Source of the DNA: a virus
Lineage: Duplodnaviria > Heunggongvirae > Uroviricota > Caudoviricetes
Reading direction: 5' to 3' (one strand)
Length of the DNA stretch: 45,506 nucleotides
Virus record (IMG/VR): IMGVR_UViG_2563366923_000008
Span: 1-45,506 of that record
Shown here: positions 2,835-26,466 of the stretch, piece after piece
Position numbering within the stretch: the stretch's first letter is position 1
How the letters are laid out: the number at the start of each line of letters is the position of its first letter
Program-made: the position numbers and the translations under genes
Notes under the pieces: generated by a model
What the model was told of the DNA's origin: nothing
Databases searched by the model: none
Seen by the model: the letters and a program-made list of their open reading frames with translations, nothing else

Positions 2835-5800
2835 TTATGCCTGAGTACGCAGCGCTTCAAGGCGGCGCAGGTCGAAGTCGTTCAGTTCGTCGGTGTAGTC
2901 AGCAGTGATTGGCGCTGGCCATTCACCTGTGTCGAATCCGGTTGCGATATTGCGCATCGCTTTGCGGTACTCGAGCATACCCAGCTCCAGTAGTTCAGCG
3001 GATGCCTCGATGATGGCGATCCAGTGGTAGTTCTCGTCTTTGTTGACGAAAATCCAGAAGAACTGATCCAGCGCTGCGGTTTCGCAGTACATAGCCGCGC
3101 TCAGGTGATAATCACGTTCAATAATTTCCCGGTGTAGCCTGGCGCGCAGGCTTTCCTGCTTAACATTCCACATGCTGATGGTTTTCAGGTCTGCACCTAT
3201 ACGCACGCCATCCAGGTCGATCTCAAGGTCAGGGCGCACACGAACTTCCAAGCCCGTCTCCTCGTCAAAACCAAAGTAGCTCACCTCAACGGCTCGGCTA
3301 GGGTGGGTCAGCAGCATGCCGGCGGTCGGGTGTGCCAGAAGCGCTTTTTGAATATTCAGCGCGGTGCTCAGCTGCTGGCGGGTGACCAGCACTTTTCCTT
3401 CCGGGTTATCGCGCCAGGCATCCAGCAGTTCGTCGGCAAATACGGCATCTGGTTTGACTGCCTTCACGGCCTGGATCATGTCTGCTTTGGTACCGGACAC
3501 TTTCAGTGGTGCCGGTTTCTGTGCTTCCTGAGCCACAAGGTCAGGGTTGATGATTGCCAACTGCTCCAGCAGCGCGTCACGGCTGCCGCTGGTTTTAACC
3601 GGCGGCGGCAGGGTGGCGTTGTACTCTTTAATGCATGCCTTCATTGCCGTCGCCGTCTGCTTCTGGTCACCATCAATACGCTGGAAGTCAGCTGGCAGCG
3701 CCATATAGTTCTGTGCCGTTTCTTCCAGGTTAGCGCCAAGCGGAACCTGCGGCGGCAGGGTGGCGTTGTACTCTTCCAGTAACACCTTGATGTCGTCGGC
3801 AGACAGCAGCGCCGGCAGGCTGGCATTGTGCTCATCGATAAAGGCGCGCAGGGTCGCGGCCGTTGTGAATGCGCCTTCAGGGATCACCGGTTCAACGCTG
3901 AATTCTGCGTCCAGTAGTTCAGGCTGCAACGCCAGCGCATGCACCAAGTTGCCCATGTCCAGCACCGCTGAGCGCTCTTTGACGATGGTTTTCTCTACGT
4001 GGCGCGCATTGAAGTACATCAGCGAAACGCGCGCATCTTTCACCTGGGTTGAGCTGATGCCGTTGGCGGCGTGGTAAACCTCGTTTGGCAGCCCTTCATA
4101 GCGGCCTGGCTCGAAATAAGCGGGATAAACAACAGCTGGTTCGTCAGATTGCGCTTCTGGCTCGGTTTGTGCTGCAACTGGTTCGGTTTGGCTTACAGAA
4201 TCGCTATTTTTGGCGACAGAATCCGTATTCTGGTCTACATCGTCCTTCTGGCTGGTATCTGACTCTTCACCAGACTCCAGACTGCTTTCGCCTGGCTGTA
4301 CTTCATCACCAGCTTGTTTTTCATCACTGACAGTTTCTTGAACCTGCACATTGCTGGTGGTCTCCGTAGCCTTTTTCGTGCCATGAGTTGCTGAGTTCTG
4401 CAGCAAAGCCGTAACGTCGAATATTCCGTTGCCGACATTTTTAACCAGTTCTTGTTCGACTTTCTGCGGTTGTGCTGCCGCTTCCTCTGCGCGGCGGCGT
4501 GCTCCTTCTTCACGCACGCGTTGCAGGTTCTCTTCGTGAGTGCAGAAGGATTTGCGCGGAGACTCCTTACCTTCAGGTTGGGGAATTTCCTGTGCTGCGG
4601 GTTCAGTCTCATGCAACGGCAATAACTCGACCGCGGAATTGAACGCGGCTGTCATGGTCTGGTTAACAAATTCCAGGTGAGCGACAGGAGTTAAATGAAT
4701 ATTTTCCGGTGCGATACGTACCAGGTTAAAAATAGCCGTGCGGTTAACACCCAGAACGCCTGGCTGATTGCGCAGGATGTTGCTCCATGATTTCCATGGT
4801 TCTTCTTTTTTGGTCACGATTTCTTTAGCGCGACGAAGAATGCTGCCCGGGATCTCGAAGTGGTTGAAGTCCATAGGCAGAAGGGCACACGCAATCTCTA
4901 AATCGAGAGTGTCCAGTGTGTGGTGTGCGTCAGGTCCACGGTCAGTGACGTAACCGCCGTCGGCATTAGTGCCGGAATCAGTACGCTGCACACTACTGAT
5001 GCGATTACCGGCGGCCCATTCGCGAACGAGGATACCGCGGTCGATGTGATCTGTAGCGAACCACAATTTCAAAAACTGGATTAAGGTTGCGAGTTCAGGG
5101 ATTTTTCCATCGACAGGGAAGACTTTCTTAACGGCATTCACGACTTTATGAATATCGTGCTCAATGGCTTTTTTGAATGCTTCCACATTCTCAGCTGCCA
5201 GCAGCAGGTTCTGGACGTACGCGTCATCGGTGTCCATCTCAAGGCGGACAATCTCATTTTTCTGCCCTGCGTCGATGTGATAGAGATATTCACCATCACC
5301 GATGAACTGAGCCAGTACGCGCTGGCGGAATGGCAGGGTGGCAACAACGATCAGGTTCGGTTGCTGTGTCTGCTGGGATTGCTCTTCGGTATCGACTTCA
5401 CCATCAACGACGCCACCTTCTGCCCGGCCGTTCTCGTCGGTCTGGATACCGTCCTCAACAGTGAGATCTTGACCCGTTGTAACGTCAGCAGCGTTGCTGG
5501 TTTCAGTTTTGAGCAACTGCAACTTACCACTGCGCCAGTCTTCTACCAGTTGATTGCGGTCACCGGCATCGGTGTTCACCCAGTCAGACATGAATGCAGC
5601 GATCAATCTTGGTTCGTGCTCTTCGTCTGGTGTGAAAATGTCCTTAACCGCCCGAATCATTTTCCACTCAGCATTCAGGCTGAGTTTGGCGGTCGCGGGC
5701 ACATCGTTCCTTGCCACAAGCAGGCTATGGAGATATGTATTGCCTTCATCTAGTGACATTTCGCTGGCAGCCAACTGCTGCTCTTTAGTGACGTGGGTTT

Positions 5801-22380: not shown

Positions 22381-23028
22381 GTGACTGATATGGCAACACT
22401 GAAGGATTTATCAAACCAGTTAAAGCAACTGCAAAAGCAAATCCCGTTTGCCACAGCTCAGGCGATGACAAAAGTTGTACGCCAGATTGAGTTGGCTCAG
22501 AAGACGGCATTCGAACGACATCTGGAGAGCCCCACGCCGTTTACCGTTAAATCAGTTGGTTCGGTGGCGGCAAGAAAGAACAATCTGACCGCAAAGGTTT
22601 TTGTCCGCGATACCGCTGCTGGTTATCTGGAACCATTCGAGTTTGGCGGAGAGCACAAGCTCAATAGCCAGGCTCTATTAAATCCCAAGAACGTTAAGCT
22701 AAACAAATACGGCAACATGCCGCGTAATAAGCTCTCACAGCTTAAAACAAAGGAAAATGTATTCGTAGGTGAGGTTGATGGCGTTAACGCTGTCTGGCAG
22801 CGTAAGAAGCCGATGAAAGCTAAGAAGCGACGGGCCAAACGTTCCGCTAACGGGACGCGAAGACCGAAACGCAAACAGCGTTCTCCAAAGCTTTTGATCC
22901 GGTTTGGTGATGCGCTACCTGTGACTCCAGTGCTGGGGTATATGGATAGGTCCCATACCATGGCGAACGCACTGCTACCGTCTGCTTTAAATCAGGCGAT
23001 AGCAGAAGCCATCAGGACGGCAAAATAA
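22381..23028 (+). CDS. Hypothetical protein with very basic C-terminal region
   Basis: 215 aa; KKPMKAKKRRAKRSANGTRRPKRKQRSPK tract suggests nucleic-acid binding. Confidence 0.5.
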   Translation: MTDMATLKDLSNQLKQLQKQIPFATAQAMTKVVRQIELAQKTAFERHLESPTPFTVKSVGSVAARKNNLTAKVFVRDTAAGYLEPFEFGGEHKLNSQALLNPKNVKLNKYGNMPRNKLSQLKTKENVFVGEVDGVNAVWQRKKPMKAKKRRAKRSANGTRRPKRKQRSPKLLIRFGDALPVTPVLGYMDRSHTMANALLPSALNQAIAEAIRTAK

Positions 23029-23038
23029 AAGCAGTAAC

Positions 23039-23542
23039 TTATAAGTTAATTTCGCAAGCTTTTATGAAGCTGTTTACTGCAGTTGTCGATCCAGAAACAT
23101 TGGCTGACATGGAATGCTGGTTTCCGCCATCCTTTGTTTGCACACCAACTAACACTTTGGATTTCGCCCCCTGAAGCTGCTTAAGCACTGTTTTTAGTTG
23201 GTCCGCGTCATCCGATTGAATCTGGAGGCTCTGAACATTACGTCTTGAAAGGGTAGCATCGAGCTTCACTGCGGTATTCCCGTCGACCTTCATTATCAGG
23301 TCCATTGGTACCTCTGATAGTGATTCGGTGCTTTTATCCATTTCAACGTATGCCGCCGATAGCTTTTCTTTAGTGCAGTCAAACACAATGGCGCCATTGT
23401 CGGATGAAACCTCGCCAAGCATCATTGCTTTCTTACCACCAGAGAAAAGGTCATCTTCAGTATTAGTTACCCACTGGGCATGAGCAATTGGTGATGCCAG
23501 CACTGCGGCTACGAAAGTTATTTTGATTATATTGTTACCCAT
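23039..23542 (-). CDS. Secreted or periplasmic protein of unknown function (opposite-strand moron)
   Basis: ATG at 23542 with AAGGAG SD at 6-nt spacing; signal peptide MGNNIIKITFVAAVLASPIAHA|QW; AT-rich; only minus-strand gene in the late region before the fibre switch. Confidence 0.6.
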   Translation of the reverse strand: MGNNIIKITFVAAVLASPIAHAQWVTNTEDDLFSGGKKAMMLGEVSSDNGAIVFDCTKEKLSAAYVEMDKSTESLSEVPMDLIMKVDGNTAVKLDATLSRRNVQSLQIQSDDADQLKTVLKQLQGAKSKVLVGVQTKDGGNQHSMSANVSGSTTAVNSFIKACEINL

Positions 23543-23685
23543 TACATTCTCCTTGTATTGAATAGGAATAATCATAGTCGGAGCGAATGGTCGAAGCCAT
23601 AAAAAAATGGGTCCTTCCTGAGACTTTTGTAAGGTACGGGCATTGCGCGCCGCGGTGTTTTCCTAGCTACAACTTTCAGATTTGT

Positions 23686-23832
23686 GTCCCATGTCCCACC
23701 TCTGGCGATCATTACGGACACCTCGCCAGCTCTGGCTATTCCAGTTTATTCCAGTGGGACATTCTGGTGGGACATGGCAAAAATGTCCCAGACGAATGTC
23801 CCACCCCAGAAAATGTCCCAGGTGATGTCCCA
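23686..23832. repeat. Array of ATGTCCCA / TGGGACAT repeats immediately upstream of and overlapping the terS start (candidate terminase-binding or cos/pac-associated sites)
   Basis: GTCCCA at 23686 and 23693; TGGGACAT at 23755 and 23768; ATGTCCCA at 23783, 23796, 23813 and 23825, the last overlapping the terS ATG. Confidence 0.6.
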
Positions 23833-24401
23833 TGACCACGATGAACCAGAGTCAGTACGCACAACATTCAGGTGTGGATCGCAAAACAATTGGCCGGTGG
23901 ATTAAAGCCGGGCGCTTCATTGTGATGGACGGAGACCTGATTGACGTAGAGGCCAGCGATGCGGCATTGAAGAAAAACCGCGATGGCAAAGACCCGCGTG
24001 CCTCGAACGCGAAGAAAAAGAAAACTCCCGTCGTTAGCGATAACGATGATGACGGTGATGAAATCAATAAAACTGTCCGCCAGATAATGCTCACTGAAGG
24101 GGCAGATCTTTCGAGAGAGGAAGCGGGACGTATCCGCGAGAATTACATGGCCCTACAGGCAAAGCTGCAGTATGAAAAAGACAGCGGCCAGCTTATTGAG
24201 CTGACAGCAGCCGAGGAGGTTTTATTCAACGCCTTTCGCCAACAGCGTGATGCCTGGCTTAACTGGCCGTCCAGGGTGGCGCCGCTAATGGCTGCTGATC
24301 TGGATGTACCGGCGGACAGGATGACAGAGGTGCTGATTGAACATGTCCACAAACACATCTCAGTCCTCGGAGAGCCAGAGTTTAACCCGGCAGAAGATTG
24401 A
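23832..24401 (+). CDS. Terminase small subunit (N-terminal HTH)
   Basis: 189 aa; N-terminal QYAQHSGVDRKTIGRWIKAG HTH; acidic linker; directly upstream of the large terminase. Confidence 0.7.
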   Translation: MTTMNQSQYAQHSGVDRKTIGRWIKAGRFIVMDGDLIDVEASDAALKKNRDGKDPRASNAKKKKTPVVSDNDDDGDEINKTVRQIMLTEGADLSREEAGRIRENYMALQAKLQYEKDSGQLIELTAAEEVLFNAFRQQRDAWLNWPSRVAPLMAADLDVPADRMTEVLIEHVHKHISVLGEPEFNPAED

Positions 24402-26466
24402 GCGTCTTGAATTAAGCGTCCGCAAAGGCTGGACACCCCCGCCGCGTATCAGTGTGCCGCAGTGGGCAGATGACTATCGTAAGCTGGCAAAAGAGGCTGG
24501 GAGCACTTCGGGAAACTGGGAAACATCGACGGTAGAAATTGCCCGCGGACCGATGCTTGCCGCGACGGAGTCCGGGGTTCATATCATCACTGTAATGTGC
24601 TGTACCCAGTTGATGAAGACAGCACTGCTGGAAAACCTTTTTGGCTATTTTGCCCACCTCGATCCTTGTCCGATACTGCTGCTGCAGCCGAAAGAAGAAG
24701 CCGCTGAACAGTTTTCGAAAGAGCGTATTAGCCCGCTGGTAAGGGTGACGCCGGTACTGCGTAAAATCATCGGTGATTCGAAACAGAAAAGCTCGAAAGA
24801 AACCATTCTTTACAAGGCATTCACTGGCGGATTTCTGGCGCTGGCGGGTGCTGGTAGCCCTGATAACCTTGCGCGTCGTCCGATTCGTGTCCTGCTGGCG
24901 GATGAAGTGGACAAGTACCCGATAACCCGCGAAGGCGATCCAATTGCGCTGGCCGAAGAGCGTACAGCGACATTTGGCCTGACCTGGCTGTCTGTACGCG
25001 CCTGTTCGCCGACGGTGGAGGATGAGAGCCGCATTGCTGACAGCTACGCCGACTCCGATCAGCGCCGGGCATCTGTGGTTTGCCCGCACTGTGGCCACCG
25101 CCAGTTCCCCGACTTTTTCAAACACGTTCAGTGGCCGAAAGAGGGAGATAAACACCTGACTAAATCGGCGATGCTCTATTGCGAATGCTGTGGTAGTGGC
25201 TGGTCCGAAGGACAGCGCCTCAGAGCTCTGCACACTATTCGATGGCATCAGACGCGCCCATTTGAGTGCTGCGGGGAGCGGCACTCACCGCTGATGGATT
25301 ATGACCTTGCCTGGCGGGCGGCAGACGAGGGCAGCGTTGAAAAGGTCTGGCAATGGTCAGAGTCGGAACGGCATGCGGTCTATCGCGCAATCTGCCCCTC
25401 CTGTGGAAAGGAGGCAGTCGATAACCACCACGCGGGGTACCAGGCATCCAAGCTTTTCAGCCCCTGGCAAAAAGATAAGCCGTCGGATATTGCGAAAAAA
25501 TATATCGATGCGAAGGGCGATCCGGATAAGGAACAGGCGTGGTGGAATACCCAGATGGGGCTTCCGCACCGACCTAATCATGGGAAACAGCTCCCTGTTG
25601 ATGTTCTGCTGGCGCGCCGGGAAATATTTCCGGCCGTCGTTCCGGACGGGGTGGCATTGTTAACAGCTGGAGTTGATACCCAGGACGATCGCTTCGAAAT
25701 TACGATCACCGGCTGGGGGAGAGATGAAGAATCGTGGTCGGTCGCGCATGACGTTATTTATGGTGACCTTGAGACGGAAGAACCCTGGAAGCGACTGGAT
25801 GCATACCTGAAACAGATCTGGCGACGTGGTGACGGGCGCGGCCTGAATATCATGGCAACGTGCATGGACTCCGGCGGCCACCATACGCAGAAGGTATACG
25901 AATTCGCCAAAGAGCGTCTTGGCCGTCGTGTCTGGGCAATTAAGGGGGAGTCTGCACAGGGAGGCAAACGCAATCCTGTCTGGCCGACCAAACGACCATC
26001 ATCGAAAAGCAAAGCCAGTTTCCGCCCTGTCATTCTGGGGGTTAACTCAGCGAAAGACGTGATACGCGGTCGCCTGCATCTTGAGCCACCCAAACCTGGC
26101 GCCGCCGCTGCGGGTTATATGCATTTTCCTGACGATCGCGATCTCGGGTACTTCAATCAGCTGCTGGCGGAGCGACTGGTTTACAAAGTCATTTCCGGGC
26201 AGCGGTACAGTATCTGGGAAGCAATACCAGGACGAGCTAACGAAGCGCTTGACTGCCTCGTTTACAGCTATGCCGCGCTGTGCGGTCTCAAACATATGGG
26301 GTTAAAACTCAACGTCCGGGCCGCCAACCTCGAAGCCGATCCGGATAAGTTCCTGCCAGCGCCAGTTGGACAGGAAGAAAAAATCAATTACGAGCTGCCG
26401 GGTGCGGTTATTGAAGAACCAGCGCCGGTCAAACGTAAGCGAATATCGCAACTCCTGCCGAAATAA
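24343..26466 (+). CDS. Terminase large subunit (lambda gpA family)
   Basis: About 700 aa with ATPase region (VLLADEVDKYP) and C-terminal nuclease; track start 24337 is TTG, ATG at 24343; overlaps terS. Confidence 0.85.
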   Translation: MSTNTSQSSESQSLTRQKIERLELSVRKGWTPPPRISVPQWADDYRKLAKEAGSTSGNWETSTVEIARGPMLAATESGVHIITVMCCTQLMKTALLENLFGYFAHLDPCPILLLQPKEEAAEQFSKERISPLVRVTPVLRKIIGDSKQKSSKETILYKAFTGGFLALAGAGSPDNLARRPIRVLLADEVDKYPITREGDPIALAEERTATFGLTWLSVRACSPTVEDESRIADSYADSDQRRASVVCPHCGHRQFPDFFKHVQWPKEGDKHLTKSAMLYCECCGSGWSEGQRLRALHTIRWHQTRPFECCGERHSPLMDYDLAWRAADEGSVEKVWQWSESERHAVYRAICPSCGKEAVDNHHAGYQASKLFSPWQKDKPSDIAKKYIDAKGDPDKEQAWWNTQMGLPHRPNHGKQLPVDVLLARREIFPAVVPDGVALLTAGVDTQDDRFEITITGWGRDEESWSVAHDVIYGDLETEEPWKRLDAYLKQIWRRGDGRGLNIMATCMDSGGHHTQKVYEFAKERLGRRVWAIKGESAQGGKRNPVWPTKRPSSKSKASFRPVILGVNSAKDVIRGRLHLEPPKPGAAAAGYMHFPDDRDLGYFNQLLAERLVYKVISGQRYSIWEAIPGRANEALDCLVYSYAALCGLKHMGLKLNVRAANLEADPDKFLPAPVGQEEKINYELPGAVIEEPAPVKRKRISQLLPK

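Follow-up and report, generated by a model that had tools for sequence, protein, structure and literature searches.

The array of short repeats that runs into the start of the small terminase gene (terS) of this E. coli prophage is very probably the cosB segment of a lambda-type cos site, in which the repeats would act as TerS docking sites for the initiation of packaging beside cosN. The window (the whole stretch of viral DNA analysed here, 45,506 nucleotides long) combines early, lysis and Q-type genes of the lambdoid kind with a lambda-like head module and a contractile tail. The prophage recurs at an identity of at least 99% in several dozen complete E. coli genomes; among 5426 such genomes, 59–63 contain its cos/terS region.

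TGTCCCA has 10 exact matches in the 45.5-kb window, with 8 of the 10 inside positions 23685–23832. The array is made up of the following elements:

Starts 23685, 23692, 23784, 23797, 23814 and 23826, + strand: direct copies of TGTCCCA (exact search).
Starts 23755 and 23768, − strand: inverted copies of TGTCCCA (exact search).
23684–23698, + strand: GTGTCCCA and ATGTCCCA as a proximal tandem pair, spaced by 7 bp and covering +46 to +59 counted from the left end.
23699–23754, no strand: variable spacer, with the conserved TTTATTCCAG (23745–23754) as its right edge.
23755–23762 and 23768–23775, − strand: inverted pair TGGGACAT, R2-like (exact search).
23783, 23796, 23813 and 23825 (span 23783–23832), + strand: four direct ATGTCCCA sites, R1-like (exact search).

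The direct 8-mer ATGTCCCA has five exact copies plus GTGTCCCA, with a single mismatch, at 23684–23691, and the inverted TGGGACAT has two exact copies; overall, 7 of the 8 array 8-mers are exact. The final repeat (23825–23832) has as its last base the A that opens the terS ATG at 23832. These six direct and two inverted copies agree with a sequence-only reading of the same DNA, which had described at least six direct and two inverted copies ending at the terS ATG and had placed the array correctly to within 1–2 bp. That reading had also distinguished the motif from the lambda R site and, indeed, lambda R3 (AGGCGTTTCCGTTCTT, bp 50–65) bears no resemblance to ATGTCCCA. Relative to the predicted left end, the positions and orientations of the copies are 46+ 53+ 116- 129- 145+ 158+ 175+ 187+. 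The four distal direct sites are spaced by 13, 17 and 12 bp, and the dominant spacings in relatives are 12–13 and 16–17 bp. Between 23754 and 23804, the inverted pair and the first two direct copies make up an imperfect palindrome with 22-nt arms.

Chance does not explain the clustering of TGTCCCA, which lies far beyond it: about 0.019 copies are expected per 148 bp (Poisson P for at least eight copies, ~5e-19), and the largest cluster in 300 shuffles had two copies. Conservation follows the motif as well. In 40 near relatives the motif columns are 99.2% conserved (49/56 invariant) versus 83% for the other cosB columns (50/125 invariant; Fisher 9e-10). Columns of the spacer at 23699–23754 are only 40–70% conserved save for the invariant TTTATTCCAG at 23745–23754, making this stretch between the R3-like and R2-like sites, TTTATTCCAG excepted, the least conserved part of cosB.

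Directly upstream of the array are the counterparts of lambda cosQ and cosN:

23609–23615, + strand: cosQ-like GGGTCCT, identical to lambda 48473–48479 and at the same distance from the nick region.
23640–23651, + strand: cosN, predicted 12-nt 5' cohesive end GCATTGCGCGCC, from its identity to BZS1 cosL.
23652–23683, + strand: conserved cosN–cosB spacer GCGGTGTTTTCCTAGCTACAACTTTCAGATTT, near-invariant in all motif classes up to CTAGCTA.

Lambda 48473–48479 is cosQ (Wieczorek and Feiss 2001), and its GGGTCCT counterpart is invariant in the 40 near relatives. The string formed by GGGTCCT, 22 nt, ACG, the 12-mer and CGCGG aligns without gaps to lambda cosQ/cosN (lambda: GGGTCCTTTCCGGTGATCCGACAGGTTACG, GGGCGGCGACCT, CGCGGGTTTTCGCTA; window from 23609: GGGTCCTTCCTGAGACTTTTGTAAGGTACG, GGCATTGCGCGC, CGCGGTGTTTTCCTA), and the cosQ-to-cosN spacing is equal in the two. 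Furthermore, the cosN flanks (ACGG and CGCGG) are the same as in lambda, and the cosN–cosB spacer GCGGTGTTTTCCTAGCTACAACTTTCAGATTT resembles lambda CGCGGGTTTTCGCTA. The exact GCATTGCGCGCC 12-mer has one copy in the window. Bases 1–12 of the linear deposit of Serratia phage vB_SspM_BZS1, annotated as cosL, are GCATTGCGCGCC and thus identical to the window 12-mer; the BZS1 authors derived this 5' overhang from virion reads using PhageTerm, then verified it by PCR and by sequencing through the prophage cos (PMC7556043). The predicted placement of cosN at 23640–23651 follows from this identity. Nick positions are uncertain by ±1 because the BZS1 end and the lambda register differ by 1 nt: the register of lambda, whose own 12-mer is GGGCGGCGACCT, would put cosN at 23639–23650 (GGCATTGCGCGC). 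A megablast of the region against sequenced phages gave no match, hence no close isolated phage with end data.

The predicted cosN lies ~34 bp upstream of the TGTCCCA array, and in coordinates that start at the predicted left end the terS ATG falls at +193, compared with +191 for lambda Nu1. Homology to relatives without the upstream insert begins at ~23608, at cosQ. The array is assigned to the cosB position because cosQ and cosN are directly upstream with lambda spacing and the 12-mer is identical to that of BZS1. The same features support a packaging site that is almost certainly cos rather than pac. The initial likening of the array to small-terminase sites at a cos or pac region is upheld by cosQ/cosN in the lambda register, by the identity to the BZS1 end and by the covariation of motif and TerS helix-turn-helix (HTH) described below; where a search for an adjacent nicking site had been proposed, cosN is now predicted at 23640–23651.

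The genes to the right of the array encode both terminase subunits:

23820–23825, + strand: Shine-Dalgarno sequence AGGTGA of terS, read from the sequence, 6 nt before the ATG at 23832.
23832–24401, + strand: terS, small terminase, 189 aa (phrog_57, E 4.6e-36, full length).
24343–26466, + strand: terL, gpA-type large terminase with ATPase and endonuclease (Pfam GpA_ATPase 2.8e-64, GpA_nuclease 2.2e-78).

The Shine-Dalgarno sequence falls between the last two repeats, and the start at 23832 is the one used by RefSeq in E. coli ECCWS199. Downstream of terL are gpW and then a lambda-family portal gene. The phrog_57 family ('terminase small subunit') also takes in lambda Nu1 (E 1.3e-76). In Pfam, TerS matched no family at E ≤ 0.01, the Nu1 (Phage_Nu1) model included, and a PDB sequence search with TerS gave marginal HTH matches only. 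The RefSeq name of the 189-aa protein is 'hypothetical protein' in every E. coli locus fetched.

An AlphaFold2 model of TerS built from 27 homologues (mean pLDDT 67, N-domain 72–78) has an N-domain with a beta strand, helices at residues 6–13 and 17–26, a beta wing and a helix at 39–50, followed by a disordered linker (52–75) and a helical C-terminal half. Foldseek against the PDB matched only the N-domain, with weak E-values (0.2–0.9), to MerR-like winged HTH proteins: Pukovnik Xis, BldC, RacA, gpNu1 (1J9I) and 6HN7 chain B. The best structural matches, Xis and BldC, act on repeat arrays in roles that differ from packaging (excision and transcription, respectively). Xis and BldC oligomerise head-to-tail on direct repeats, which offers a mechanistic analogy only. 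The match to the gpNu1 DNA-binding domain (1J9I) had a probability of 0.82 and a TM-score of 0.52 on the target. An hhalign comparison of the TerS alignment with Nu1 (probability 6.9%) covered the HTH region only, with residues 4–61 on Nu1 3–61, and put TerS helix 17–26, which varies between motif classes, on the lambda recognition helix (Nu1 residues 17–24; PMC9026076). The relationship between TerS and Nu1 rests on PHROG co-membership and fold, and the predicted structure supports, short of proof, a Nu1-like reading of the sites by the TerS N-domain.

The pairing of repeat motif and TerS type was examined across relatives by scanning two public collections for GGGTCCT-N18-26-ACGGGCATTGCGCG. 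Among the 172 cos regions analysed, 148 had a recognisable TerS HTH open reading frame (ORF) after them, and these reduce to 107 distinct cosB sequences. Each of four TerS HTH types goes with one of four motifs, and in the 107 unique cos regions no motif occurs with another type:

Class A: TerS HTH YA.H..V[DN]RKT[IV].RW; motif TGTCCCA, 5–9 copies.
Class B: TerS HTH FA[KR]LH.VSRKT.T.WK.RGW; motif GGTAACA.
Class C: TerS HTH YAEH.G[MI]SRR.FYNWESK; motif TTCACAC.
Class D: TerS HTH YAKHAGMSRQALY.WE; motif TTGACAC.

The motifs of classes C and D are one base apart, and their recognition helices differ in a few residues. Extended logos read RTGTCCCA in class A and RGGTAACA in class B, and the long class B layout (47+ 54+ 123- 135- 153+ 166+ 179+ 190+) is near that of the class A window. 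Nearly all class A and class B relatives have the pair at +46/47 and +53/54, and the two classes have common spacings of 7 bp in the proximal pair and 12–13 bp between distal copies. A comparison of the window with a class B relative (L008) separates the parts that change from those that do not. The protein of 215 aa encoded upstream is 81% identical, TerL is 92% identical and cosQ/cosN are near-identical. The C-terminal half of TerS is 82.5% identical versus 52% for the N-terminal 50 residues, and the cosB motif is replaced. Of the compared proteins, the TerS N-domain alone changes together with the motif.

We infer TerS binding to the repeats from the exclusive covariation of motif and HTH, the conserved layout and the conservation footprint; some of the covariation could be linkage, because the motif and the TerS N-domain are adjacent. 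In late growth, the N-terminal winged HTH of TerS would bind the ATGTCCCA sites, presumably using all eight: the R3-like pair at +46 to +59, the R2-like pair at +116/+129 and the four R1-like sites at +145 to +193. Bound TerS would anchor the gpA-type TerL, which is predicted to introduce staggered nicks at cosN (23640–23651), ~34 bp to the left, leaving the 12-nt 5' overhang GCATTGCGCGCC. Packaging would then proceed rightwards into terS, with cosQ (23609–23615) serving to end it at the following cos. Repeat motif and TerS recognition helix would together constitute a specificity cassette open to exchange, a parallel to lambda versus phage 21.

Matching packaging sequences occur in an island that has no terminase. 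This island of ~17 kb is flanked by rcnR and thiM in E. coli 2015C-4136CT1 (L195, NZ_CP027550) and encodes an integrase, a primase-family protein, SSB and regulators, with no terminase or virion genes. Its end has cosQ, cosN (GCATTGCGCGAG) and at least nine TGTCCCA/CGTCCCA copies. A 259-bp cosQ–cosN–cosB block is 97% identical between the island and a phage contig with a class A terS (L147); its left end lies ~6 bp ahead of cosQ, and its right end falls immediately in front of the terS ribosome-binding site. Taken with the start of homology at ~23608, the ends of this block would delimit the functional unit to roughly 23606–23832.

In all, the island has two cos sites (L195 10964–11160 and 16004–16255) in the same orientation and with the same cosQ/cosN, one with a TTTACAC-type array (class C/D-like) and the other with the TGTCCCA array. 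They may belong to one satellite addressable by two helper specificities or to two tandem elements. The second cos region is complete in only 2 of 5426 complete E. coli genomes.

Other roles for the repeats were weighed against a cosB function. An operator through which TerS or another regulator controls terS/terL, instead of or besides packaging, is improbable, even though the last two copies flank the Shine-Dalgarno sequence and the final one overlaps the terS ATG. Among unique sequences, ~80% in class A and ~90% in class B have a repeat adjoining the terS start codon, as does the short BZS1 layout. However, a scan of 22900–24000 found no terminators or sigma-70-like promoters (sigma-70 consensus; 0 promoter-like sequences versus 1.6 expected in shuffles). 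The late transcript of lambda-type phages starts far upstream, which we also count against an operator. Furthermore, in several class A relatives (L115, L130 and L147) the last copy is set back upstream from the terS start by an extra 11–27 nt relative to the common layout, and the array persists in the terminase-less island, where there is no terS for it to control. Operator function alone would also leave the fixed distance to cosN unexplained. Autoregulation of terS is unsupported but may exist as a secondary role. We give even less credence to copies acting in the late mRNA as a hairpin upstream of terS that tunes translation or stability. The RNA of 23740–23850 does fold at −41.1 kcal/mol (z = −3.65 versus shuffles), but a hairpin is the automatic by-product of any palindromic arrangement of DNA sites. 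Conservation extends to the proximal pair and the last two copies, which stay unpaired in the RNA fold; class A relatives of other orientation (e.g., 47+ 54+ 124+ 138- 157+ 174+ 195+) lack the 2+2 palindrome, and an Rfam search gave no match.

There is very little to recommend a headful-phage pac site, whose TerS boxes would be of the SPP1 pacL/pacR kind. Several TerS boxes close to terS are known at pac sites too (PMC4669245), but TerL is of the gpA type, a lambda-like cosQ/cosN is directly upstream and the nearest isolated relative, BZS1, has measured 12-nt cohesive ends. It is just as hard to believe that the repeats are non-functional or that their link to the TerS type reflects hitch-hiking during recombination. 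The cosB and the region coding for the TerS N-domain are <100 bp apart and would be co-inherited anyway, which favours hitch-hiking. Yet the motif columns are far more conserved than the spacers between them, and different motifs occupy the same positions, spacings and orientations. Classes C and D, moreover, are set apart by a single motif base and a few recognition-helix residues. Retention of the array in an island without terS and clustering far beyond chance argue against a lack of function.

As a cosB, the array has its closest parallel in lambda. The likeness extends to an identical 7-bp cosQ, the same cosQ–cosN spacing, conserved cosN flanks, a TerS start ~190 bp from the left end, and a gpA-type TerL and Nu1-PHROG TerS encoded directly to the right of cos. 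The order of sites is also alike, with a cluster of TerS sites at the R3 position, then inverted and then direct sites (+ + / − − / + + + +). Lambda cosB consists of R3 (bp 50–65), I1, R2 (inverted) and R1, as passages in PMC4669245 and PMC9026076 set out, and the R3 of N15, its single critical site, occupies bp 48–60 (PMC9026076). The two arrays differ in that the window has the core ATGTCCCA in place of the 16-bp lambda R sequence and eight short sites (2+2+4) versus three, each R site being replaced by a doublet or quartet. The predicted cohesive end differs as well (GCATTGCGCGCC, or GGCATTGCGCGC in the lambda register, versus GGGCGGCGACCT in lambda). Unlike lambda, the window has no IHF consensus between the R3-like and R2-like sites: a scan of its cosB for WATCAANNNNTTR with at most one mismatch found none, and the lambda control recovered I1 at bp 79. 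We therefore dropped an IHF-bend model from the claim because the consensus scan was negative in the window. Bending of cosB may instead be intrinsic, TerS-induced or due to another or divergent factor. The array is very probably a new sequence specificity class of the lambda-type cos family, with a mechanism that is classical rather than new.

The lambda and phage 21 pair offers a second parallel. These phages have cosQ/cosN and TerL in common and differ in cosB sites and TerS recognition helix, and classes A–D do likewise. The specificity module of lambda and 21 was shown genetically to be cosB plus the 5' end of terS, according to the section of PMC4669245 that treats it. In contrast, at least four motif classes sit on one cosN here, and specificity is read from covariation.

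The closest isolated phages, Serratia phage vB_SspM_BZS1 and Citrobacter phage phiNP, are more distant (TerL ~48% and TerS ~33% identical). They have the same cosQ and the identical 12-nt cohesive end (measured for BZS1) but differ in the motif (GGTAACA), of which three copies only precede the terS ATG at +75. The cosB repeats are not described in the BZS1 paper (PMC7556043), packaging is not discussed in the phiNP paper, and a literature search (the 12-mer, the motif with terminase, and the cosQ sequence) gave the BZS1 paper only and no description of the repeats. In N15, passages of PMC4669245 describe a simple cosB with a critical site at the R3 position and an accessory inverted rR2 within terS. 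The BZS1-type layout is like that of N15, whereas the window array is a complex cosB wholly upstream of terS.

BZS1-type genomes (L010 1–700; phiNP L012, about 3000–3720) have 5–7 more GGTAACA copies inside terS. These intragenic copies encode a Gly-Asn-Lys/Arg-rich linker, and the overlap of cosB and gene recalls N15 rR2.

E. coli phage-inducible islands (PICIs) of the EcCICFT073 type are terminase-less and have helper-like cosQ/cosN (PMC9026076), and the L195 island follows the same logic. The described PICIs, however, have a cosB unlike that of the helper and use Rpp to redirect TerS. The L195 island differs in having a TGTCCCA array of the phage type and, in addition, a second cos that bears a different motif.

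These results place the packaging origin at single-site resolution in a prophage type that ~1% of complete E. coli genomes carry and that occurs in many other Enterobacterales, and assign a function to a protein that RefSeq calls 'hypothetical protein' in the E. coli loci examined. Four natural matches between a TerS recognition helix and its DNA motif, set in an almost identical background, provide a system for studying how TerS reads DNA and how specificity evolves. From the pairing it can also be predicted which helpers are open to exploitation by a given cos-bearing island. More speculatively, the cos regions could constitute a modular packaging 'address code', an idea that we hold only tentatively and consider rather doubtful as a whole. 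Its conserved chassis would be cosQ, cosN, the TerS C-terminal domain and TerL, and its swappable cassettes would be a short-repeat cosB with the matching TerS winged HTH, with at least four motifs and an IHF-free, multi-site TerS–DNA assembly. Islands would copy one or two cassettes, each giving access to the packaging of a different helper, and the site at the terS start may feed back on TerS synthesis.

Two proteins are encoded upstream of cos. The first (window 22381–23028; 215 aa) has no Pfam match, is a homologue of BZS1 p72 (as annotated in the phiNP record) and occupies this position immediately before cos in phages of classes A and B alike. This protein and TerL were considered as specificity partners and rejected; they are 81% and 92% identical, respectively, across the motif switch. 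The second (23039–23575, − strand; 167–178 aa) lies between the 215-aa gene and cosQ, has no family match and occurs in a subset of relatives only. Its N-terminus is signal-peptide-like by eye, and it looks like a moron insertion because homology with the other relatives starts at 23608.

The scan also matched more distant or atypical genomes. Matches in actinobacterial and Elusimicrobia metagenome-assembled genomes (L014, L029, L032, L039, L044, L048, L049 and L067) were set aside because no TerS-like ORF followed and the gap was always 18 nt; they are probably conserved unrelated sequence and not cos. A contig of 226 kb labelled as the Gram-positive Vagococcus sp. WN89Y (L018) has a class A cos/terS near-identical to the enterobacterial ones and likely reflects contamination or mislabelling. 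In L150 and L068 (Klebsiella sp. WOUb02), cosQ/cosN and 6–8 GGTAACA copies have no TerS ORF next to them; the next ORF in L150 has a stretch matching the window portal, which suggests that terS and terL were deleted. Beta- and alphaproteobacterial genomes, among them L025, L112 (Chromobacterium), L024, L051, L182 (Rhizomicrobium), L035 and L046, have the pattern followed by an HTH-type TerS-like ORF 44–54 bp after the left end, with no repeated 7-mer. These cos regions look like a short, 'simple' cosB.
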